Shown here: piece after piece, positions 7,434 through 46,134 of the stretch
How positions within the stretch are numbered: the stretch's first letter is position 1
Layout of the letters: each line of letters starts with the position of its first letter
From: Candidatus Kapaibacterium sp.
GTDB taxonomy: Bacteria > Bacteroidota > Ignavibacteria > Kapaibacteriales > UBA2268
Assembly: GCA_013414795.1 (NCBI GenBank)
Contig: CP058732.1
Coordinates: 2,331,737 to 2,395,736, forward strand
Length of the DNA stretch: 64,000 nt
Direction: 5' to 3'
Translations under genes and position numbers: made by a program
Notes under the pieces: model-generated
Databases searched by the model: none
The model's input: the letters and a program-made list of their open reading frames with translations, nothing else
Told to the model about the DNA's origin: nothing

Positions 7434-10343
7434 TTACTTTACGAAAATAGAAAAAATTTCTTTATCTCCGTTCGATGTTTCAAGCAAAATATAATATAAG
7501 CCAGGGTCGACAACTCGATTGTTAAAATTAGTTCCGTCCCAGAAAACACAATAATATGTTTCTCGGGTGCGTGGGGCATTTTCCAGCAAAGTTTTAACTA
7601 TTCGGTTGGCTTGGTCGACAATCTTGATAGTAACATCAGAATCTACTTTCAAAATGAAACTAACTTCCGCTTGTTCAGTGAACGGATTGAATGGATTTGG
7701 TGAGACTGCATTGATAATGCTTGGTTTACTAATGAATATTGTCGTGTCGGCGACAAGACACTCTTTGGAACAAACAAAACGAAAAGCAATCTTGTCGGGA
7801 AATGTTCTTTGTTGTTCAAATGAATAAACTCCACTTTTTGCATCCAAGTCAGCAATTTTTTTAAATGTAACACCGCCGTCGATTGAAAACAAGACTGAAA
7901 GCGTGTCGCAATTTGGAAGGACATTCCAACGAAAATATTTTGTGCAACACAAAGTATTCGAGGAATCGTATGTAATTGTAAACTGTTCTGGTTTAACCGA
8001 CTTCAAGACTACTGCCGAAGTGTCTTTGTAATCAAATCTTGAATAAATGGCTCTAAATGGCACCTTAGCACTCAGCATAGAAGAAGAATAATCAAAAATT
8101 GGCAAGCAAGGTAGAGTTATCAAACGGGTTTCGTTTGCTTGGGGTTTGAGAATAGTTAGAATATCAAACCATTGTTTACCGTCGATAGAGTATTGCAGTA
8201 ACAAAGTGTCCACGCATAGAGTCGAGAAACTAACGGTTGCATTCGTATAAACATCAATTTGTTGCAAGACTGCTTGGTCGAAAAAAACATTGGGAGCGTT
8301 AAATTGAAAAACACCAGTTGAGTCGAAAACTTGTGTAGCATCTAAAGAATTCTCAATGTACAATATACCAACTTGCCCAAGCAATTGACGACTAACACCG
8401 ATTTTTACCAAAGTGGTTTCTCTATCAATACGAACATTGTTCTGTAAAATGAAAGATTTAGAATATTGGTTTTGGTTGTTTACTCTTGGAACAAATCGAA
8501 CATTGACCGTGTTGTCAGTTTTGGATTTGGATTTAATTGTCAAAAATAGAGTATCGCCGAAGCAAAATTCTTTAATCGAGAATTCATCAAACCTTGGGTC
8601 GACAACTTCTATTAATTTTGGCAATGGGCTTCCAATTAAATAAAGATAATTATTAGTTACCACTACGATATCATTTTTCCCATCTCCATCAACATCAGAA
8701 ACGATTGCCTCCATTATTGTTTCATTTGGAAAATCCTTTATAAAAAGGGTATCGAATGGTTTCCCTAACTTAAAATCAAACGAGTTGTAATCACGCAACT
8801 GCACTATCAAAAGCCTTGAACCATCGACCAGAACAATTTCATCCTTCCCATTTGGTGCACCATCGATGTCATTCACCGAAGCCACCCAACCACTTATACT
8901 TGCAGTGCAGATAGTATCGAATGGAAAAAGAAAGGAGTTTGGTGGATTTGGCTTTGGAATCGGTTTCATTTCGTTATAACGAAGTACCAGCAACTTATTC
9001 CCAGCAACAGAGCCGAACTTTGAACTATATGTTACAATAATCTCTTTCCCAGGATTGTTTGGAAAGTATGGTGGAAAAGAATTTGCCGAGTTTCCATCTA
9101 CATTACCGACCGCAATAGACCACGAGTGGTTGTTTTTACCAACAAAAGAAGGCGAAATAAGATCTCCTGGTAAAGTTATCGCATTTCCATTGCCATCGAA
9201 TAGATGTAATCTTGCTTGACCAAATGAAGAATCTATTCCAAGATATTCTTCTGCAACGAGTAAATATAGAGAATCATTTGTTAACGAGTTGTTCAAAGTA
9301 ACAAAGAATGGACGAACTCTTGGTCTTTTACCGTTTCCGTCAAGTATTGAACTTAATTCCAATGGTTGAAACTTTTGGCGAATCTGATTATTCAAAAGGG
9401 TGTAACCAAGAAGGTAGCATTTCGTTGGGTTGGTTCTATCCAGCGAAATATTGCAAGGAACATTAACATCTGGACCCAAAGAAGCAAAGTTTGGCACAGC
9501 AACATAGAAATTTCCCCCTTCTTGAAAAATTGAGGGCGGAGTAATAGAAACTTCTGGTCCGACAGTTACCCGAAAAATTTGATTATCTGTAATATCTGGC
9601 ATTGGAAAAGTGTACAAAACATTGTTAGATGGAAAGACAGAAAATCCACGGAAGAATTCTGGTGTAGAAGGATTAGTGTCCTTCGCAATGGGATTGTAAA
9701 TATTTGTAGTGGAATAAACCAAAAAATCGCTTCCCAAGCGACGTGCAAAGAAAGGTTTCATAGAGCCGAAAACATTTGGCTTATATTGTCGCATATCAAG
9801 CACCAGCCTTTTAAGCAATGCAATCGTATCGGCTTTGGAATCATACCCAGCAATGTATGTATAAATCAATGTGTCCTTTGGGTTTTCAAACTCAATAGTC
9901 TCCAAACCAAGAACCAAAGTCGAAGTCGGATTGGGATAGTAAGTTGTCGACAAAGTATCGAACAAAACTGAAATATTTTTTACATATTGGAAACCAAATG
10001 TATTGGTTTTATGTGTGAATCCTTTACCATCTACAACAACAACTTTACCACCGACAACTGCAACAATTTCATTTGGAGCATAGGGGAAAGTATCATCAAT
10101 TTTGGCGGTGTCACGAATGATGTTCCCGACGAGGGCTTGAACGTCGCCAGCAATGGATTTATTTCGCCATTTAACAATGAATTGGCTTACATCTTGAGTA
10201 AAAGAAGGAATTTGTTGGTAACGAGTACCTTGTGCATTTCCATTTGGAAATAACCAGACAGCGGGACTTGTAGGAAATGTTTGTGAATAAGTTAGGTAAA
10301 AAGAACTGGCTAATAATAACCAAAAAAATATCTTTCGTATCAT
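7434..10343 (-). CDS. large secreted protein with FG-GAP/VCBS-like repeats and T9SS C-terminal sorting domain
   Basis: About 970 aa. The signal peptide follows the internal Met (MIRKIFFWLLLASSFYLTYSQ). It has integrin-like Asp-rich loops (VDGDGKNDIVVV, GAPNGKDEIVLVDG). The last roughly 90 aa (SPNPFNPFTEQAEVSFILKVDSDVTIKIVD...FWDGTNFNNRVVDPGLYYILLE...) match the Por/T9SS CTD pattern (FlgD-Ig-like). Confidence 0.7.
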   Translation of the reverse strand: MIRKIFFWLLLASSFYLTYSQTFPTSPAVWLFPNGNAQGTRYQQIPSFTQDVSQFIVKWRNKSIAGDVQALVGNIIRDTAKIDDTFPYAPNEIVAVVGGKVVVVDGKGFTHKTNTFGFQYVKNISVLFDTLSTTYYPNPTSTLVLGLETIEFENPKDTLIYTYIAGYDSKADTIALLKRLVLDMRQYKPNVFGSMKPFFARRLGSDFLVYSTTNIYNPIAKDTNPSTPEFFRGFSVFPSNNVLYTFPMPDITDNQIFRVTVGPEVSITPPSIFQEGGNFYVAVPNFASLGPDVNVPCNISLDRTNPTKCYLLGYTLLNNQIRQKFQPLELSSILDGNGKRPRVRPFFVTLNNSLTNDSLYLLVAEEYLGIDSSFGQARLHLFDGNGNAITLPGDLISPSFVGKNNHSWSIAVGNVDGNSANSFPPYFPNNPGKEIIVTYSSKFGSVAGNKLLVLRYNEMKPIPKPNPPNSFLFPFDTICTASISGWVASVNDIDGAPNGKDEIVLVDGSRLLIVQLRDYNSFDFKLGKPFDTLFIKDFPNETIMEAIVSDVDGDGKNDIVVVTNNYLYLIGSPLPKLIEVVDPRFDEFSIKEFCFGDTLFLTIKSKSKTDNTVNVRFVPRVNNQNQYSKSFILQNNVRIDRETTLVKIGVSRQLLGQVGILYIENSLDATQVFDSTGVFQFNAPNVFFDQAVLQQIDVYTNATVSFSTLCVDTLLLQYSIDGKQWFDILTILKPQANETRLITLPCLPIFDYSSSMLSAKVPFRAIYSRFDYKDTSAVVLKSVKPEQFTITYDSSNTLCCTKYFRWNVLPNCDTLSVLFSIDGGVTFKKIADLDAKSGVYSFEQQRTFPDKIAFRFVCSKECLVADTTIFISKPSIINAVSPNPFNPFTEQAEVSFILKVDSDVTIKIVDQANRIVKTLLENAPRTRETYYCVFWDGTNFNNRVVDPGLYYILLETSNGDKEIFSIFVK

Positions 10344-10453
10344 ATAGCCAACCATTTTAAAATATTTGGAAAATAATATACAAAACATCAAATGCAAAAT
10401 ACAAAAAAATTACATATACATAAATTGTACCAAACTCCTGGCGGGTACGATTA

Positions 10454-11353
10454 CTATTTTTTTCTTTTGTTCTTGGATTTATCTTTTTTGCGGAAACTTG
10501 GCTTGCCAGAAAATCTTTTATTATCTTTGCTTCTACTGGTTCTTTTCTTCCCTTTGGATTTTTCAATCTTTTTGCTCGGTGGAGCAATTTCAACTTTGGG
10601 TTCGAACAAGTTATCATCCTCAATTTCGTGAATAGGTGAACCATCGAAGCAAACGACAAATTCCCCTTTGAACTTCGTATTTTTAAAAATATTATACAAT
10701 TCCTTAAAAGTTCCGTAATGGTGGGTCTCGAAAGGCATTGTCAAATTGCACCCGATGTAGGCACGTCTGTCTGGCATAATCTGTGCAGCAGCCTCGAGCA
10801 AAGGAACAAGTCGGTATGGTGTTTCGAGAAGTACAACCGTCCGCTTCTCTGTGCTTAATCTTCGAAGTTGCAAAATTCGTTCTTCTTTCTTTCTACTTAA
10901 AAAGCCAGCATAGAGAAACTGGTCAATCGGAAAACCACTTCGAACCAAAGCAGTCATCAAACTCGAAACTCCTGGGATGACTTTTATGGGTATTTCTTTT
11001 TTCAAACAAGTTTGAACCAGAAGCAGACCTGGGTCGGCAAATACTGGCGTTCCACCATCACAAATCAAAGCAAGGTTTTTTCCTTTCTCTAACAATTCAA
11101 CAAGTTGTGGCGTCTTTATCATTTCGTTCTGTTCATTCAACAATTCCATTTTCTGCGAAAGATTGTATTTGTGAAGAGTTCTGGCACCAACCTTTGGCTC
11201 TTCACATACCACAATATCTACCGATTTCAAGACCTTCAACGCTCGTATGGTAATATCGTCATCGTTTCCAATGGGTGTCGAAACAATGTATAAAGTGCCA
11301 TACTTCTTTTCTTTTTGCTCTTTGTTTTGTAAATTTTCAGGGTTATGTTCCAT
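10454..11353 (-). CDS. rsmI: 16S rRNA (cytidine1402-2'-O)-methyltransferase RsmI with Lys-rich C-terminal extension
   Basis: Tetrapyrrole-methylase fold with RsmI motifs (LYIVSTPIGN, VVCEEPKVGARTLHKYNL, ALICDGGTPVFADPG, ETPYRL). The C-terminus continues in KSKGKKRTSRSKDNKRFSGKPSFRKKDKSKNKRKK. Confidence 0.8.
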   Translation of the reverse strand: MEHNPENLQNKEQKEKKYGTLYIVSTPIGNDDDITIRALKVLKSVDIVVCEEPKVGARTLHKYNLSQKMELLNEQNEMIKTPQLVELLEKGKNLALICDGGTPVFADPGLLLVQTCLKKEIPIKVIPGVSSLMTALVRSGFPIDQFLYAGFLSRKKEERILQLRRLSTEKRTVVLLETPYRLVPLLEAAAQIMPDRRAYIGCNLTMPFETHHYGTFKELYNIFKNTKFKGEFVVCFDGSPIHEIEDDNLFEPKVEIAPPSKKIEKSKGKKRTSRSKDNKRFSGKPSFRKKDKSKNKRKK

Positions 11354-12452
11354 TTTTCACATAAATTTTTGGTACTCTTTGAGAAACAGAAGTAATTACC
11401 TCGTAAACAATTGTATTGGAGCATCGGGCGAGTTCTTTACCGTCGATTTCTTCTTCACCTTGCTTACCAAGAATTACAACTTCATCGCCAATTTTCACAT
11501 TGTCGTTACCAACATCAACCATAATCTCATCCATACAAATACCGCCAACAACTTTGTATCTTTTGCCATTAATTAAGCAAAAGAAAGTGTCGGAGATTAA
11601 TCGTGAAAGCCCATCGCCATAACCAATTGGGACAGTTGCAATATGCGTATCGAATTCGGCTCGAAATCTTCTGCCATATCCCACGGTCTCTCCTTTGGAA
11701 ATTCTTCTTAATGAAATTACTTTCGAAAAAATTTCCATTACTGGCTTAAATTTATTTTCGGAAGATACACCATCGGGAATATATCCATAGAGAGCCAAGC
11801 CTGGTCGAACTGCATCTAAAAATGATTCTTTCGAAGTAAACAAAGCACCAGTGTTTGCGATATGGCGAATTTCGAACTCAAAACCAGCGGATTTTAATTG
11901 TTCCAAAACTTGGAGAAATTTATTCAATTGTTGCGAAGTGTATTCTCTATCAGATTCAGACGAAGCAAAATGCGACATTATCCCAATTGGATTTATATTC
12001 GGTAGACGAGAACAAGATTCCACCAATTCAAACGCTCGCTCTGGCAACACTCCATCACGTCCCATACCAGTATCGACGTAAAAGTGGATATTGGCAACTT
12101 TTCCTTTCGAACGGGCGTATTCAGATATTTTCTTTGCAACATAATAACTTTCAATGGCGTAGTCCAAATAATAATCCACCGAGGCTTCGATAGTAGCATC
12201 ATTTTCGGGGACAAGAACAAGAATTGGTACTTTAATACCAGCGTTCCTCAATTCTATGCCTTCATTCACAAAAGCAACGGCAAGATAATCAATACCAAAT
12301 TCTTCAAGATAGCGTGAGATTTCGATTAGACCGTGTCCATAGGCATTGGCTTTGACAACACCAATTAACTTCTTGTCGCCTATTATCTTCCTAATGTTAA
12401 GATAATTGTTGTAAAGATTATCTATGTTTATCCGAGCAAAAGTTGTCCTCAT
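11343..12452 (-). CDS. alr: alanine racemase
   Basis: PLP-lysine motif VVKANAYGHG, a typical length of 369 aa, and C-terminal beta-domain residues. Overlaps rsmI by 11 nt. Confidence 0.85.
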   Translation of the reverse strand: MRTTFARINIDNLYNNYLNIRKIIGDKKLIGVVKANAYGHGLIEISRYLEEFGIDYLAVAFVNEGIELRNAGIKVPILVLVPENDATIEASVDYYLDYAIESYYVAKKISEYARSKGKVANIHFYVDTGMGRDGVLPERAFELVESCSRLPNINPIGIMSHFASSESDREYTSQQLNKFLQVLEQLKSAGFEFEIRHIANTGALFTSKESFLDAVRPGLALYGYIPDGVSSENKFKPVMEIFSKVISLRRISKGETVGYGRRFRAEFDTHIATVPIGYGDGLSRLISDTFFCLINGKRYKVVGGICMDEIMVDVGNDNVKIGDEVVILGKQGEEEIDGKELARCSNTIVYEVITSVSQRVPKIYVKNGT

Positions 12453-12453
12453 A

Positions 12454-14265
12454 CTAATTCTTTACTCCGATGAAATTATCAATCTGACTAATCAATTCTG
12501 AAATTTTCTCTATCAAAAGCCCTTTATTTTTTTCTTTTTCTTGCAAGACCATTTTCAATTTCGTCAATTCTTCGTTTAAATTTCGATACTCGAGTATTTT
12601 TTCATTATAAAGAATTTCGATTTTTTCTTTATCCCTTAATGCTTTCAAATAATTATCCTGAACATCATTTTTTTCTTTATTTAAAGCAAAAATCTTTCTT
12701 TGCAAATCGATTTTTTCTTCGCTCATTTGTTTATTCAATTCTTTCAACTCTTTGTTTATTTGCCTCATTGAATTCACTTCACCTTGCAATTTGTAAAATT
12801 CGTTCTTATATTGCATTAATTCCCGCAAGTTTTCATCTTTTCGAAGCAATTCAGATTTAGTTTTTTGCAATTCCTCCTCGGCTAATTTCGCTTTTTCTCG
12901 AAGTTCAATCAATTCTGAATTAAGGCTCTCAACTTGTGTATTTAAATCATCTATCGTAGTGCGGTAAATTTCTAATTGTTCAATAAGTTCACCTTGTTTG
13001 GATTGTCTACTCTTCAACTCGGCGTAAATTTTTTCCAATTCATTTTTCAAATTTCGATTCTCTTCTTCCAAATTTCTCATTTTAATATTTTTTTCTTCCT
13101 CGTCTGCTTGGAACTCTTTTATCTGATTGTCAAGTTTGAATCTTTCCTTTTCTTTGTTAGTAAGTTCAGTTTCTAATCCAGCAATTCTGTTCTTGTGAAA
13201 AACAATTTCCTGCTCGAGTTCTTCGATTTTTTTGGCGTTCTGCACAAGAACATCGTCAATTCTACTCTTCAACCGAAGATTTTCTTCTTGCAATGAACTA
13301 ACCTCGAATGTCAAATCCTCAATCTTTGTTACTATTTGCTTTAAATAGTTTAAATAATCTGATAAATTTTTCCCATTTATTTCAAATCCTAAATTAGACA
13401 AAATTGGAGTGGAAAAGATTTTTCCAAAAGAATCAATTAATTCCTGTTCCTTTTTCCTAAAAGTTTCTATTTGCTCATTCAACATTTGTATCTGGCTTGA
13501 AAGATGTTCAATTTCACGCTCCTTTTCAATCTTTTGAACAGCAGTCCTTTCAAGATTCTTTTCGAGTTCACTCGATTCGGAAAGCAATTGTTCGTATTGT
13601 GCTTTCAAATTATCATAGTCAATGGATTTCACCCGAAAAGTTTCAATCTCTGTTTTGTATTGTTTTAATTGCTCATTTTGCTCGCTATTCACTTTTTGCA
13701 ACTCAATAATCTTTGCTTCTAAAATTGGCAACTTCTTTTCTTTTTCTTCGAGTTGGATAATAACGTTTTCAAGTTCTGCAATTTTTTCTTTATAAGACAT
13801 TATCTCATCGTTCAATTGATTTATTCGCAAATTTTTTTGAACAATATCTTCTTGTGCGTGTTTAAGTTGCTCTTCGAGTTCTTTCAACTTTTCGTCGCTT
13901 TCAGAATATCCAAACAAACTTCCCTCGAGAAATTCCTTTTGCTTTTTATACTCCTCGTAATACATTTGCAGAAAATTGTTTTCCTCACGGAGTTCGGAAA
14001 TTACAGACTCGTATTTCTGAATTATGTCGGGGGAATAATTTTCCTCAATTGTTTTTAACTTTTCTTCTAATTGTTCAACTTTCGTTTCGAAATCTTGGAC
14101 TTTTAGGCGAAGCGACTGATTTTCCTGCTTCAACGCTTCATTTATTTCAACTTGTTTTTGGTACTTTTCGACGAAACCACGAATTGCAGTCCAAAGATTT
14201 TCAATAACGATTTGAAGATTCTGGCTGGGTTTTAGACTTTTGTCTTCAAAATTAATCTGTTCCAT
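12454..14265 (-). CDS. 603-aa coiled-coil protein (E/K/L/Q/N-rich heptad repeats throughout), function unknown
   Basis: No TM segment, signal peptide or catalytic motif. Heptad-like periodicity runs from residue about 30 to the end. Its stop lies 1 nt from the alr start. Confidence 0.6.
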   Translation of the reverse strand: MEQINFEDKSLKPSQNLQIVIENLWTAIRGFVEKYQKQVEINEALKQENQSLRLKVQDFETKVEQLEEKLKTIEENYSPDIIQKYESVISELREENNFLQMYYEEYKKQKEFLEGSLFGYSESDEKLKELEEQLKHAQEDIVQKNLRINQLNDEIMSYKEKIAELENVIIQLEEKEKKLPILEAKIIELQKVNSEQNEQLKQYKTEIETFRVKSIDYDNLKAQYEQLLSESSELEKNLERTAVQKIEKEREIEHLSSQIQMLNEQIETFRKKEQELIDSFGKIFSTPILSNLGFEINGKNLSDYLNYLKQIVTKIEDLTFEVSSLQEENLRLKSRIDDVLVQNAKKIEELEQEIVFHKNRIAGLETELTNKEKERFKLDNQIKEFQADEEEKNIKMRNLEEENRNLKNELEKIYAELKSRQSKQGELIEQLEIYRTTIDDLNTQVESLNSELIELREKAKLAEEELQKTKSELLRKDENLRELMQYKNEFYKLQGEVNSMRQINKELKELNKQMSEEKIDLQRKIFALNKEKNDVQDNYLKALRDKEKIEILYNEKILEYRNLNEELTKLKMVLQEKEKNKGLLIEKISELISQIDNFIGVKN

Positions 14266-14295
14266 AGGTTCACAAAATTATTTTATAAAAACAAT

Positions 14296-16713
14296 TTAGA
14301 AAATTCGGAGTTCTCCGCCAACTTCCGATTTAACTTTTTCGACAATATTGTTCACCCAATCTTGAACTTCCTCGTCGGTCAGCGTTCTTTCGTCCGAATT
14401 GAAGAAAAGTGCAAACGCCAGATTCTTCTTGCCTTCCCCGATGTTTTTGCCTCTAAAAACATCAAACAGAGTAATTTCTCGAAGATACTCTCCAGCAGAG
14501 TTTCTAATTATATCAAACAACTTTTGCGAGGGCAAACTCTCATCGACAACGAATGCAAGGTCTCGGCGAACAACGGGAAAAGGCGAGATTCTTTCATATT
14601 GAGGAAGTTTTTGCTCAAATAAATAAATTTGCTCAAGATTTAAATAACCAACCAGTGCATCTTCCTCTACGTCGAATAATTTCTTAACAGTGTTGGAAAT
14701 GAAACCGAATTCACCTTCGATTTTGCCATTTATTTTGATAAAAGCGTGCTCGGGCTTGAACACTTTTGTTTCTGCAACTTCAAATGAAATTTCATAGTCC
14801 TGAACTTTGAAAGTGTGTAGAAAATGTTCAAAAATTCCCTTTAAGTCGTAAAAGTCCACCTTTCTGTTGTTCATTCCCCATTGAAATGGAAAAGCAAGAC
14901 CAGAAAGTCCAATGCAAAGAACCTCCCTTTCTTCTATTCCCTCGATGAATTTATTGGCTTTTGGATCCTTTCTAAACTCTTTCCCAATTTCGAACAATCT
15001 CAAATCTTTTTTGCCAACGTTCAAATTCAACTTCACGACTTCAAGCATCGACGGAAGAATGCTTGGTCGCATAATTGAATACTCTTCGCCAAGCGGATTT
15101 TCCAATTCTATGTACTCGCTTGAATTGAATATACCCATCTTTTTGGGATTATATAAATTCTGTGTTAAAATCTCAACAAAACCTCGTGCAATAAAGTAAT
15201 TTTTGACATCTTTTCGTATCGGTGGAATGTCGAGTTCTGTCTTGTATTTGTCGCCAGAAAAAGTTATAGAAAAACTTCTGTCCTCTGGGATTTTATCGTA
15301 ACCAAAGAAACGTGCAACTTCTTCTATTAAATCAATCTCTTGTTCTACATCAAATCTGTGCGATGGAACTTCGAACACAACTTTTCCCAATTTCTGGTCG
15401 GCAATCTTAAACCCAAGATGAACCAGATAGTTGACCATAGTTTCGTTGCTAATGTCTGCACCAATGACATTGCGTGCTCTTTCAAAGCGGAAAGAAACAA
15501 ATTTCCTGGGAATTTTATTGGGATAGACATCGATATTTCCAGATACAAGTTCCCCATTTCCAAGATATGCAATCAAGTTTGCCGCTCGGTTCAAAGCAAA
15601 AACAACATTGTCGTAATCGACCCCTCGCTCGAACCTATATGAAGATTCGCTCGAAAGCCCAAGTTTCTTCGATGTTCTCCTAATCGAGGCGGGATTGAAA
15701 AAAGCAGATTCCAAGAGAACATTTCGAGTATCCGATGTGATTTCACTATTTTCACCGCCCATAACTCCACCGATTGCAACGGGCTTCTCGCCATCACAAA
15801 TCATAAGCATAGAACTATCGAGTATGCGTTCTTTTCCATCAAGGGTTACGAATTTTTCGCCCTCGCTTGCTGTTCGAACAATAATTTTATTTAAAGCAAG
15901 TTTATCGAAATCGAATGCGTGGAGCGGCTGTCCCAACTCCATCATCACATAATTTGTAACATCGACAATGGAATTAATCGGACGCAAGCCTAACAAAATC
16001 AATTTGGATTTTAACCAACTTGGAGACTCGCCGACTTTTACATTTTTTATCAATTTTGCGGAGTATCTTGGACACTTTTCTGTATCCAATATTTCAACAG
16101 AAACAAATTGGGAAATATTAACATCTGAATTTTCCTTCATTTCGAAGAAAGGTATTCGCAATGGAATTTCAAAATATGCAGATAACTCGCGTGCTATACC
16201 AAGATGGCTAAGACAATCGCCACGATTCGGAGTAATACCAATTTCAAATACAACATCGTCGAGTCCAAAATATTCAGAAAACGGCTTGCCAACGGGTGCA
16301 CTTTCTTCAAGTACTAATATTTCATCTGCACAATCCCCAATTTCCAACTCATCTTCGCTACATATCATTCCGTTGGACCGATAACCCCGAATTACTGTTG
16401 GTTTTATTTCGAATTCCCCTTTGGGAATAATTGCCCCTGGCATAGCAAGAACTACTTTTTGCCCATTGGCAACGTTTGGTGCACCACAAACAACATCAAC
16501 TGTTTCCTTTCCGTTGTCAACCTTGCAAAAAGAAAGTTTTTCGGTTATTTTTTCGACAGATTTTACTTCTGCAACGAAAAAATTTCTGTACTTCTCTGCG
16601 AAATCAATAAACTCTTCAACTTCAAATCCAATAGAAGTCAAGACATTAGCAATATCTTTTGGATCCCGTTGCAAATCAATAAATTCATTCAATAACTTAA
16701 AAGAGATTCTCAT
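14296..16713 (-). CDS. pheT: phenylalanine--tRNA ligase beta subunit
   Basis: 805 aa with an N-terminal tRNA-binding domain, B3/B4 and B5 domains, and a C-terminal FDX-ACB domain (DLAFVVDESLP...EITLFDVFRG...LAFALFF). Confidence 0.9.
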   Translation of the reverse strand: MRISFKLLNEFIDLQRDPKDIANVLTSIGFEVEEFIDFAEKYRNFFVAEVKSVEKITEKLSFCKVDNGKETVDVVCGAPNVANGQKVVLAMPGAIIPKGEFEIKPTVIRGYRSNGMICSEDELEIGDCADEILVLEESAPVGKPFSEYFGLDDVVFEIGITPNRGDCLSHLGIARELSAYFEIPLRIPFFEMKENSDVNISQFVSVEILDTEKCPRYSAKLIKNVKVGESPSWLKSKLILLGLRPINSIVDVTNYVMMELGQPLHAFDFDKLALNKIIVRTASEGEKFVTLDGKERILDSSMLMICDGEKPVAIGGVMGGENSEITSDTRNVLLESAFFNPASIRRTSKKLGLSSESSYRFERGVDYDNVVFALNRAANLIAYLGNGELVSGNIDVYPNKIPRKFVSFRFERARNVIGADISNETMVNYLVHLGFKIADQKLGKVVFEVPSHRFDVEQEIDLIEEVARFFGYDKIPEDRSFSITFSGDKYKTELDIPPIRKDVKNYFIARGFVEILTQNLYNPKKMGIFNSSEYIELENPLGEEYSIMRPSILPSMLEVVKLNLNVGKKDLRLFEIGKEFRKDPKANKFIEGIEEREVLCIGLSGLAFPFQWGMNNRKVDFYDLKGIFEHFLHTFKVQDYEISFEVAETKVFKPEHAFIKINGKIEGEFGFISNTVKKLFDVEEDALVGYLNLEQIYLFEQKLPQYERISPFPVVRRDLAFVVDESLPSQKLFDIIRNSAGEYLREITLFDVFRGKNIGEGKKNLAFALFFNSDERTLTDEEVQDWVNNIVEKVKSEVGGELRIF

Positions 16714-16793: not shown

Positions 16794-16827
16794 AAAAAAA
16801 GGAGAGGTTGTAATTTACAACCCCTCC
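16794..16827 (-). terminator. rho-independent terminator (minus strand) downstream of the K/E-rich gene
   Basis: Hairpin ggagaggttgt/aattt/acaacccctcc (11-bp stem with one mismatch). On the minus strand it is followed by a 7-nt T run (plus-strand aaaaaaa at 16794-16800). Confidence 0.7.
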
Positions 16828-16855
16828 TAACCTTGTTCCATTAATATTTTAGGGA

Positions 16856-17167
16856 TTAGTTGCTTTTCTTTTCTTCTTTCTTTTCTTTCTTCACTTTCTT
16901 TGTGGCTTTCTTCTCTTCTTTGGACTTGGCTTCTTTCTTTTCTGCTTTCTTCTCTTCTTTCATTTCTTTCTTTTCTGCCTTCTTCTCTGTCTTTGCCTCT
17001 TTCTTTTCCATCTTCGGTTGTTCCTTCTCGGTCTTCATTTCTTGCTTTTTCTCAACTTTTGGCGAGGCTTTCTTTTCTTTCGATTTTTCTGCCGCGGGGG
17101 TTTGGGCGAAAACGCTTGTTGCAATAAATGCTATTGCAACAACTACTGCAATGATTGCTCTTTTCAT
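16856..17167 (-). CDS. secreted low-complexity Lys/Glu-rich protein (KEKK repeats)
   Basis: Start chosen at MKRAIIAVVVAIAFIATSVFAQ (signal peptide) with a GGAG RBS upstream. The mature part is almost entirely (E/K)-K-K-x repeats. The nucleotide sequence is ttctttc-type repeats, which explains the many spurious overlapping ORFs in other frames. Confidence 0.6.
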   Translation of the reverse strand: MKRAIIAVVVAIAFIATSVFAQTPAAEKSKEKKASPKVEKKQEMKTEKEQPKMEKKEAKTEKKAEKKEMKEEKKAEKKEAKSKEEKKATKKVKKEKKEEKKSN

Positions 17168-17306
17168 AAAGAACTCCAAAAAATGTTAAACATACGCCTT
17201 TTGGCGATACAAAATTACTATTTCAAAATATTCGTTATTCATTTTTTGAAAATTTTTTTAAAATTTTTTATTTTAAAATTTCTTCATTTGTCAAAAAATT
17301 TTTTAT

Positions 17307-18245
17307 ATGTCAAATTTTTTATACAAGTTTTCTATATTAATTATCGGAACAATTGTCTCGACCACTATCCCTCTTTACTCACAATGCGGTTGTTCCTCGA
17401 GCCAACAATTTCTTCCTCCACTCCACTGGCTTGGTTCAAGCGAAATTTCAATTTCCCAGAAAAAGCGCCTCCACCTCGATTTTATGTACAAATTCGCAAC
17501 GGGGAATAATTTGTACAAAGGCACCGAAATAGTTCCCTCCCAAACTGATTATAAATTTCACTTCATCGACTTTTTTTCTACTTATGGCTTGACAAACTAC
17601 ACATCAATAGACTTTTACCTCGACTATAACTTTCGGCTTCTTAATCAATATGGTTTCGATACCAAAGGCTACGGCTTCTCGAACGCTTCACTGGGGTTAA
17701 GACATACATTTTACGAAAGCGAGAACTCTGATTTGGTGATAAATGGTGGCTCTGGAATAAAAATTCCTTTGATGAAATTCAAACCAATAGAAGAGTATCC
17801 AATTATTTCGCAACCAACAAATGGCTCTTTTGGATTTTACGCTTTCGCATTGCTCCAAAAGTCAATTCCAAACATTTCCTTGAATCTTTTGTTGTATTCA
17901 AGATTTGATTACAACTTCAAAAACAATATTGATTACAAATTTGCCCCATCGATTTCCAGTTCACTTTTTCTTTCACGACGCTTTTCAACAAAGTTTGTAG
18001 CACTTGCCGAACTTCGCCACTCTTTTATGTTCCAAGATAAATATAAAGATACGACTTATCCGAACTCGGGGGCAAATTTGATTTTTTTAGTACCCAGATT
18101 AACTTTTATTTTCGATGAGATTAGCATTTCCCCGTATTTTGAACTCCCGATTTACCAAAATTACAAAGGAGAACAACTTGGAGCAAAATTTGCAATTGGT
18201 ATCAACTTTAATTATGTTTACAATTTTTCGAGACGAAAATTTTGA
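17307..18245 (+). CDS. predicted outer-membrane beta-barrel protein (hypothetical)
   Basis: Signal peptide MSNFLYKFSILIIGTIVSTTIPLYSQ, alternating aromatic and hydrophilic beta-strand patterns, and a C-terminal ...NFSRRKF with terminal Phe typical of OMPs. Confidence 0.5.
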   Translation: MSNFLYKFSILIIGTIVSTTIPLYSQCGCSSSQQFLPPLHWLGSSEISISQKKRLHLDFMYKFATGNNLYKGTEIVPSQTDYKFHFIDFFSTYGLTNYTSIDFYLDYNFRLLNQYGFDTKGYGFSNASLGLRHTFYESENSDLVINGGSGIKIPLMKFKPIEEYPIISQPTNGSFGFYAFALLQKSIPNISLNLLLYSRFDYNFKNNIDYKFAPSISSSLFLSRRFSTKFVALAELRHSFMFQDKYKDTTYPNSGANLIFLVPRLTFIFDEISISPYFELPIYQNYKGEQLGAKFAIGINFNYVYNFSRRKF

Positions 18246-18265: not shown

Positions 18266-18745
18266 ATGAAAATCTTCTTTTCGTTTGCTTGCATAGTTAT
18301 TTCTTTGCTTTTCACTTTTCAACTTACCGCCCAAGACGGCAACCAAATTAAGATAAGAAAAGTAAAAAAGCAAAGCATCCGAAATGTCGACACCACCTCG
18401 AAAACTATTCAAATCCAGCAACTGAAAAATGAGGCAAAGGTCAAGATTCGCGAAGCCAAAGAGCGAGCAAAGGCAAAAATTCTTGAAGAAAAGGCAAAGT
18501 CGAAAGAAAGAATAAACTTAGCGAAAGAAAAAGCCCGACTTGAAGTCCAAAAGGCAAAGGAAAAAGCGAACAAAGAAGTTCAACAAGTAATCGAAAAAGA
18601 AAAAAAACATATGGAAAAGGTGAAAAAAGAAGCCAATTTAGAAGTCGATAAGGTTAGGAAAGAGTACAACCAGAAAATCCAAAAAATTCTACAAGAAAGC
18701 GCCAACCCAACAAAAAAGAAAAGCAAGGAAAAAGATAATCAGTGA
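18266..18745 (+). CDS. secreted Lys/Glu-rich coiled-coil protein (hypothetical)
   Basis: Signal peptide MKIFFSFACIVISLLFTFQLTAQ, then about 130 aa of K/E/A/Q heptads (KIREAKERAKAKILEEKAKSKE...). Confidence 0.55.
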   Translation: MKIFFSFACIVISLLFTFQLTAQDGNQIKIRKVKKQSIRNVDTTSKTIQIQQLKNEAKVKIREAKERAKAKILEEKAKSKERINLAKEKARLEVQKAKEKANKEVQQVIEKEKKHMEKVKKEANLEVDKVRKEYNQKIQKILQESANPTKKKSKEKDNQ

Positions 18746-45663: not shown

Positions 45664-45738
45664 GGGCGGATAGCTCAGCTGGTATAGAGCGCCTGCCTTA
45701 CAAGCAGGAGGTCGGGAGTTCGAGTCTCTCTTCGCCCA
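45664..45738 (+). tRNA. tRNA-Val (anticodon TAC)
   Basis: Cloverleaf: acceptor gggcgga/ttcgccc, D-arm gctc-agctggta-gagc, anticodon loop cuUACaa, T-arm gggag-ttcgagt-ctctc. Confidence 0.85.
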
Positions 45739-45747
45739 CGATAGGTT

Positions 45748-45833
45748 GCAGAAGTGGCGGAACTGGCAGACGCGCTGGACTCAAAATCCAGTGGGCTTAA
45801 AAACCCGTGCGGGTTCGACTCCCGCCTTCTGCA
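45748..45833 (+). tRNA. tRNA-Leu (anticodon CAA)
   Basis: Acceptor gcagaag/cttctgc, anticodon stem ctgga/tccag with loop cuCAAaa, a long variable arm (ggg...ccc), and T-arm gcggg-ttcgact-cccgc. 86 nt. Confidence 0.85.
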
Positions 45834-45978
45834 CTTCGATATTATGCCAATTCTCTTTCCTTTACTTCCTTGACATCCAACTTGGTTACTTTCAATGCAC
45901 ACAAATTCAAAATCTTCCAATTAAAGTTACTCTTTCTGATGAAAATAATGATTTTTTTGTTAATTTTGTATTTTGGTT

Positions 45979-46052
45979 GCACCCGTAGCTCAATTGGATA
46001 GAGCATCTGACTACGGATCAGAAGGTTGGGGGTTCGAGTCCCTCCGGGTGTG
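45979..46052 (+). tRNA. tRNA-Arg (anticodon ACG)
   Basis: Acceptor gcacccg/cgggtgt (G1-U72), D-arm gctc-aattggata-gagc, anticodon loop cuACGga, T-arm ggggg-ttcgagt-ccctc. Confidence 0.8.
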
Positions 46053-46060
46053 CAAAGCCT

Positions 46061-46134
46061 GCACCCGTAGCTCAGCTGGATAGAGCATCAGATTCCGGAT
46101 CTGAGGGTCGTGGGTTCGAATCCCGCCGGGTGTG
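46061..46134 (+). tRNA. tRNA-Arg (anticodon CCG)
   Basis: Same scaffold as the preceding tRNA, with anticodon loop uuCCGga and T-arm gtggg-ttcgaat-cccgc. Confidence 0.8.

Follow-up and report, generated by a model that had tools for sequence, protein, structure and literature searches.

ZapB of Escherichia coli has ZapA and not FtsZ as its binding partner and forms a bridge to MatP. To our knowledge, no coiled-coil partners of ZapA other than ZapB and ZauP have been characterised, and these two come from Proteobacteria. Two published accounts describe ZauP as a small coiled-coil protein encoded by the zauP-zapA operon of Caulobacter, which binds ZapA and not FtsZ, is recruited to the Z-ring via ZapA, forms oligomers, bridges to the terminus-binding protein ZapT, and is considered functionally homologous to E. 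coli ZapB (PMC7858052, PMC7188993). Here we analyse a 64,000-nt stretch of a Candidatus Kapaibacterium sp. genome (assembly GCA_013414795.1, contig CP058732.1, positions 2,331,737 to 2,395,736; hereafter the window, to whose positions all coordinates refer unless another locus is named) that carries a gene for a 603-aa coiled-coil protein at 12454..14265 (-), named X throughout. Most likely, X represents a much enlarged type of coiled-coil partner of ZapA, from a phylum in which no such protein has been described, and is not categorically new. We read it as a putative rod-expanded analogue of ZauP and ZapB, the coiled coils that partner ZapA at the Z-ring, with a probability of roughly 0.55. 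We infer this function from gene context only; what the data establish are the relationships within the X family and the gene contexts of its members.

The X open reading frame (ORF), stop codon included, is supported by its ATG start, its heptad periodicity, a helical AlphaFold2 prediction and its homologues. The protein is rich in E (17.6%), L (12.8%), K (12.6%), I (8.6%), Q (7.8%) and N (7.8%) and is acidic, with a net charge of -30. Its hydrophobic periodicity peaks sharply at 3.5 residues, where the windowed power is 0.875 vs 0.217 +/- 0.046 in 500 shuffles (z = 14), and 48% of its residues lie above the 99th percentile of the shuffled heptad-register score. The AlphaFold2 model, built from a six-homologue alignment with a mean predicted local distance difference test (pLDDT) score of 71.6, is about 94% helix (residues 15-76, 79-115, 121-284, 287-291, 301-351 and 367-602), with breaks at 116-120, 285-300 and 352-366 and pLDDT below 50 at 345-351 and 356-366. 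This model contains no globular domain, a scan of X for a Walker A motif was negative, and no transmembrane segment was found in the protein (maximum Kyte-Doolittle 19-residue mean 0.92). The sequence-only reading of this locus was right to call X a real minus-strand coiled-coil gene whose product has no transmembrane segment; its description of the heptads as almost uninterrupted is slightly generous given the three breaks. We also considered whether X consists of two fused ZauP-like units, and rejected this: the best internal match of the head scores 59, below typical rod-rod matches of 66-76, and there is no evidence of duplication.

No family in Pfam or NCBIfam reaches its cut-off against X. 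The NCBIfam models SMC_prok_B, SMC_prok_A, ASRP and Rad50 align to the rod with E-values of 1e-15 to 1e-7, scoring 30-54 bits vs cut-offs of 567-1087. A profile of X searched against all PDB sequences finds only seven unrelated coiled coils, at E-values of 6e-6 or worse, and Rad50 and SMC arms are the top Foldseek matches of the AlphaFold2 model, with TM-scores of 0.1-0.3. SMC and Rad50 arms turn up in these searches because their helical composition is similar. A further match to PF24161 was discarded, since it corresponds to CCDC39, a generic coiled coil. X is thus a long cytoplasmic coiled coil without a known family, as had been proposed from the sequence, and no SMC-like or chromosome-partition family claims it with confidence.

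Generic coiled coils also complicate the search for relatives. A word-indexed search of 5.8 billion proteins, with X or alignment A1 as query, yielded only six clusters of true relatives (100-32% identity) because such proteins swamp the candidates; the same search with a 60-residue N-terminal alignment returned a single fragment only. The named members of the family are all annotated as "hypothetical protein" in Candidatus Kapaibacterium or Kapabacteria, and GTDB species genomes hold three X loci, two of them titled Kapaibacterium or Kapaibacteriota. An exhaustive hidden Markov model (HMM) search of 1.84 billion representatives gave P0011 (577 aa, E = 5e-110), P0012 (430 aa, 1e-73), P0021 (445 aa, 1.5e-15), P0026 (578 aa, 9e-12) and P0058 (396 aa, 3.6e-8), which were picked from hundreds of generic coiled-coil matches. 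Pairwise BLAST E-values are uninformative here, as coiled-coil decoys give values of 1e-15 to 1e-40 among themselves. As a control for inflated coiled-coil scores, the X family profile was therefore compared by hhalign with 75 matches of comparable length. P0011 (6e-69), P0012 (3e-43), P0021 (2e-17) and P0026 (2e-13) each align from N- to C-terminus over at least 418 columns; the best generic coiled coil among the 75 controls reaches 3.5e-9, over only 110-200 central columns. The alignment of P0026 runs end to end (E = 2.2e-13, 514 columns, 11-594 vs 12-571), a C-terminal HMM detects P0026 (44.5 bits) and P0021 (31.8 bits) exactly at their C-termini with the best decoy at 24.4, and the X block EEKIDLQRKIFALNKEKN has a counterpart, QEKIDQENKIFTLLKEKN, in P0026. 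Judged by sequence, P0026 can be taken as a robust homologue of X, and it is this protein that carries the homology claim. P0058 is the only match in the decoy range that runs from residue 6 to residue 6 with the head motif in register. Two other candidates, P0007 and P0008, proved to be phage coiled-coil proteins adjoining portal and fibre genes and were rejected. In one further locus (L007, 4678..6519) an X homologue is broken into two ORFs on a contig of 2.8x coverage, probably through an assembly frameshift rather than as a pseudogene.

Family members range from 396 to 603 aa and retain both ends, joined by a rod of about 200-410 residues. The N-terminal head motif of X, KPSxxhQxhhxNLWxAIxxFVxKY, spans residues 10-45 (14131..14238 (-)) and is invariant in A1 at P13, N23, L24, W25, I28, F31, V32, K34, Y35 and Q38. 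It recurs in P0012, P0021, P0058 and partly in P0026, with hhalign placing it in register for P0026 and P0058; the family-wide form is KPSxxhQxhhxNLWxxI, extended by FVxKY in the X clade. The coiled-coil rod that follows (residues 46-415; 13021..14130 (-)) varies in length between members. P0012, for example, matches X only at 6-280 and 406-603, and its residues 245-429 align to X profile positions 418-602. Within the rod of X lies a nearly invariant, clade-specific motif (residues 350-373; 13147..13218 (-)), LEQEIVFHKNRIAGLExELTxKEK, which reads EIVFHKNRIAGLE in X, with L350, E353, I354, H357, K358, R360, I361, G363, L364 and E365 invariant in A1. This motif is present in P0011 and absent from P0012, P0021 and P0026, and overlaps the predicted non-helical, low-confidence segment 352-366. 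The C-terminal block (residues 416-603; 12457..13020 (-)), supported by invariant columns of A1 and by the HMM, contains YRTTIDDL, QYKNEFYKLQGE, EEKIxLQRKIFxLNKEKN and a terminal QIDNFI.

The case for a role in cell division comes from the genes around the more distant members. The gene for P0026 lies directly upstream of that for ZapA (PF05164), which is followed by RNase Y. P0058, in two assemblies, occurs in the order pheT-(dubious 283-aa ORF)-P0058-ZapA-RNase Y, and P0021, from a "Candidatus Kapabacteria bacterium", in the order pheT-P0021-methyltransferase-YdjM. Metagenome contigs were also scanned independently with the window's pheT as query. In those loci whose pheT is 42-45% identical to that of the window, a coiled-coil gene begins 16-35 nt after pheT and encodes a protein of 112 aa (L017), 405 aa (L014, L015 and L018) or 599 aa (L016). 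ZapA follows the coiled-coil gene in L014, L015, L017 and L018 (Pfam E-values of 2.5e-7 to 9e-16, all above cut-off) and is followed in turn by RNase Y, with its RNase_Y_N, KH and HD domains. L016 carries a TnpB/Cas12f-like gene (PF07282; L016 9501..10877 (-)) after the 599-aa coiled-coil gene, where its sister loci carry zapA. A 65-residue C-terminal HMM has the 405-aa proteins as its first and third matches, exactly at their own C-termini, and the N-terminal HMM aligns with the 112-aa protein in register at 13.2 bits, no better than coiled-coil decoys. On these sequence comparisons we treat the 112-, 405- and 599-aa proteins as positional equivalents of X, not as proven homologues.

Where the coiled-coil gene stands directly after pheT, the spacing is 15-52 nt, and pheT lies upstream in every locus that extends far enough, with the exceptions of L093, where a dubious called ORF intervenes, and L092, where no pheT is found within the 220 nt available upstream. 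For P0026 and P0058 and in L014, L015, L017 and L018, zapA comes directly after the coiled-coil gene and on the same strand; X itself and the 11 other alr-linked loci described below have no zapA directly downstream. The constant neighbour of the family is thus pheT, and the downstream gene varies between zapA-rny, alr-rsmI and a methyltransferase. Because pheT is constant and the downstream partners switch outside the window's clade, zapA-rny is likely the ancestral downstream partner of the family, and the adjacency to alr-rsmI is a derived, rearranged gene order of one Kapaibacterium clade.

In the window, X is preceded by pheT (14296..16713 (-); TIGR00472, 846 bits), its constant upstream neighbour, and followed by alr (11343..12452 (-); TIGR00492, 358 bits), a neighbour found in this clade only, and rsmI (10454..11353 (-); TIGR00096, 190 bits), all three exceeding their curated cut-offs. 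The genes are tightly packed, as the sequence-only reading had noted: a 30-nt spacer (14266..14295 (-)), terminator-free by scan and by sequence, separates pheT from X, the TAG stop of X at 12456-12454 is followed by a single base and then the alr ATG at 12452, and rsmI overlaps alr by 11 nt. The order pheT-X-alr-rsmI is kept in 11 further loci, 10 of them distinct, with pheT at least 54% identical: L001 and L006 (which encode the same protein, P0003), L002, L003, L004, L005, L012, L013, L091 (with the 430-aa form), L095/L096 and L098. L006 (CAZGCT010000004.1) is titled 'uncultured Hyphomicrobiales bacterium', and its shared X protein and Kapaibacterium synteny make this bin label look wrong. 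X-alr gaps are 1-23 nt across these loci, X identity falls to 32%, and the genes outside the four-gene block vary. X evolves fastest of the four, at 32-69% identity vs 54-74% for pheT, 56-76% for alr and 78-92% for rsmI in the same genome pairs. The conservation of the X-alr adjacency thus held among near relatives and did not extend to distant homologues, which carry zapA-rny or a methyltransferase instead; it ends at the edge of one clade.

Two observations concern the loci surveyed outside this clade. In all zapA-linked loci, 346-612 nt of non-coding sequence separate zapA from rny (L014 9985..10330; L017 9179..9535; L092 2461..2836; L093 9618..10229), a gap in which neither an Rfam match nor a 6S RNA was found in the related loci and which might be a long rny leader. 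Further out, about 60 loci (L019-L089, e.g. L051 8451..8807) with a pheT 37-40% identical to the window's carry a MerR-family gene of about 115 aa after pheT. A preliminary assignment of the 110-120-aa ORFs in this position as zapA, with 6S RNA and ygfA, was rejected: these ORFs belong to the MerR family, and rimP, nusA and infB come after them. The MerR family also includes Caulobacter ZapT, which binds DNA and partners ZauP (PMC7188993).

The slot that the relatives of X occupy upstream of zapA matches the zauP-zapA signature and, more generally, the place of small coiled-coil ZapA partners in the genome, which suggests, by analogy, that X is most likely a Z-ring-associated scaffold. ZauP, like X, is a cytoplasmic, all-coiled-coil protein without a catalytic domain, and its gene immediately precedes zapA on one strand, as do those of P0026, P0058 and the 112- and 405-aa proteins, though not that of X. 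In contrast to ZauP, X is about five times longer and is followed by alr instead of zapA; it is likened to ZauP by description and not by sequence, its host belongs to a Kapabacteria/Bacteroidota-like lineage instead of the Proteobacteria, and its binding to ZapA is only predicted. ZapB is likewise a coiled coil, and X, with two conserved ends joined by a rod, has a comparable logic, but ZapB has only 81 aa, shares no detectable homology with X, and is encoded apart from zapA in E. coli. As a class these partners are small (about 80-110 aa), whereas the X family spans 396-603 aa, and only the 112-aa equivalent in L017 comes near their size. The Pfam ZapB model (PF06005; gathering score 31.5 bits) has no match to X at E<=1, the X family aligned by hhalign with E. 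coli ZapB reaches a probability of 4.5% with the full profile and 33% with the N-terminal profile, and the 112-aa positional equivalent reaches 13.8 bits against the Pfam model (E = 0.084). X is therefore not, by sequence, a member of the ZapB family. Nor is EzrA among the Pfam or NCBIfam matches of X at E<=1, and X lacks the N-terminal transmembrane anchor of EzrA.

As a ZapA partner, X would assemble into coiled-coil dimers or oligomers of elongated shape. Of its two conserved ends, one, for which the N-terminal KPS..NLW head is the best candidate, would dock on the ZapA tetramer that decorates FtsZ filaments, and the other, the C-terminal 190 residues, may self-associate or bind a second partner. 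The variable rod of about 200-410 residues would fix the span, which for a straight single X rod could reach about 80 nm at most (about 560 helical residues x 0.15 nm). Like ZapB and ZauP, X might in this way stabilise the Z-ring or tether something to it. A rearrangement in the Kapaibacterium clade of the window would have put alr-rsmI in the place of zapA-rny downstream of X.

Several findings weigh against a ZapA partner. X is 5-7 times longer than ZapB or ZauP, with no detected sequence similarity to E. coli ZapB, and the 64-kb window and the flanks of all alr-linked loci yielded neither zapA nor rny. Similarity scores are inflated for coiled coils; by score alone, P0058 (E = 2.5e-7) falls inside the decoy range. 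The full-length X profile gives no significant match to the 112-, 405- or 599-aa proteins (hhalign probability 1-54%). The zapA-upstream coiled-coil genes of these lineages are themselves unstudied, which leaves the function assigned to X by gene context twice removed; our literature search returned no account of a ZapA-upstream coiled-coil protein in Bacteroidota or Kapabacteria.

The first alternative places X among the generic coiled-coil-rich proteins (CCRPs) that form filaments, in the manner of crescentin or FilP, and gives it a role in shape or polarity apart from ZapA; the zapA neighbourhood of its relatives would be a historical accident. Crescentin, FilP, Scy and other CCRPs are, like X, long cytoplasmic rods of segmented coiled coil with no enzymatic domain; the breaks of X at 116-120, 285-300 and 352-366 resemble linkers, the Pfam Filament model (PF00038) aligns weakly at 179-416, and the adjacency to pheT illustrates that a conserved neighbourhood need not mean function. 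Yet that Filament alignment has an E-value of 0.32 and 11 bits vs a cut-off of 40, and the periodicity of X is the canonical heptad of 3.5 rather than the 3.64-3.67 of hendecad-type FilP and Scy (power 0.875 at 3.5 vs 0.445 at 3.67) or a 51-residue repeat. The family context points to zapA and not to shape determinants, and the known signature of zauP-zapA is a coiled-coil gene that immediately precedes zapA on its strand (PMC7858052). We consider this alternative unlikely, and the membership of the crescentin, FilP or CCRP type suggested by the sequence-only reading is not borne out.

The second alternative, also raised by that reading, takes X as a cytoskeletal or scaffold organiser of cell-wall synthesis coupled to Alr, localising for instance the supply of D-Ala or the synthesis of peptidoglycan precursors. 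The small X-alr gaps in the 11 further loci, which persist as pheT diverges to 54% and X to 32% identity, argue in its favour, as do the varying outer flanks, which indicate that the four-gene block itself is maintained. Against this, the distant homologues and positional equivalents have zapA-rny or a methyltransferase in place of alr, and rsmI and pheT share the block without a cell-wall role, so that function and operon membership do not go together here. X has no identifiable alr-interacting feature, and the clade-specific central motifs do not follow the linkage to alr, P0012 being alr-linked and devoid of them. X is probably co-transcribed with pheT, alr and rsmI, and this would amount to co-expression, not to evidence of a physical link with Alr. 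Functional coupling to Alr is accordingly weakly founded and, in our view, quite unlikely: it draws on a derived gene order only, and a cell-division scaffold is the better-supported reading of X.

In a more far-reaching scenario, a ZapA-partner-type coiled coil may have grown from about 110 to 400-600 aa in Kapabacteria and related Bacteroidota-like lineages, with one clade uncoupling it from zapA and fixing it in an operon with alr; X would then serve as a long spacer or ruler linking the Z-ring physically to a new target, for example peptidoglycan-precursor supply or the chromosome, or would replace ZapA where zapA has been lost. We regard this scenario as very unlikely. Finally, the idea that X is an SMC-, Rad50- or MukB-like chromosome-organisation protein or fragment, which draws on the NCBIfam alignments and Foldseek matches given above, is effectively refuted by the missing ATPase head motifs: X has no Walker A motif, head or hinge domain, no split head domains are encoded next to it, its scores are an order of magnitude below the family cut-offs, its TM-scores are low, and the PDB profile search yields unrelated coiled coils only.

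A strong intrinsic-terminator-like hairpin (16800..16828 (-); 13-bp stem with six G-C pairs and a T-run) bounds the transcription unit upstream of pheT, so that pheT appears to begin a unit of its own. None of the pheT/X, X/alr and alr/rsmI junctions has a terminator-like site, the weak candidates listed all falling inside coding sequence, and it is plausible from the sequence that pheT, X, alr and rsmI form one transcription unit. On its far side from pheT the hairpin is flanked by a small K/E-rich ORF, and pheS does not adjoin pheT. Two small Lys/Glu-rich ORFs with hydrophobic N-termini (16856..17179 (-) and 18266..18745 (+)) lie either side of a 312-aa ORF (17307..18245 (+)); the latter has a conserved N-terminal 'QCGCSSSQQF(L/F)PPLHW', also seen in L005 and L006, and no Pfam match. 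At the other end of the block, the RsmI C-terminus (10454..10620 (-)) is a Lys/Arg-rich tail of about 55 residues, …PPSKKIEKSKGKKRTSRSKDNKRFSGKPSFRKKDKSKNKRKK, which extends past the TIGR00096 match (residues 21-243); RsmI is 266-296 aa in relatives, and the length of the tail is thus variable. After rsmI comes a secreted-looking 987-aa protein (7434..10397 (-)) whose C-terminus is weakly FlgD-Ig-like (E about 1e-3, below cut-off). Its gene is syntenic in L001, L002 and L006 (971-972 aa), and the protein has about 1063-1092 aa as mechanically called in L005; in the loci syntenic for it, a response regulator comes next. A four-tRNA cluster at 45664..46134 (+) accounts for the only Rfam matches within the window.

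For cell-division specialists, to whom X is of moderate interest, a ZapA partner of this type would have several consequences. The tight X-alr junction offers a caution for annotation by gene context, since it mimics functional coupling but goes back to a recent rearrangement, and the functional signal is held by the older context, zapA. If X and its relatives do act with ZapA, dozens of "hypothetical protein" annotations would receive a name, and the module of ZapA plus a coiled coil would extend to a further major group of bacteria, namely Kapabacteria with the Bacteroidota-like lineages related to them. The rod length of the partner would then be evolutionarily very plastic, from 112 to 603 aa, with testable predictions for the architecture of the Z-ring.

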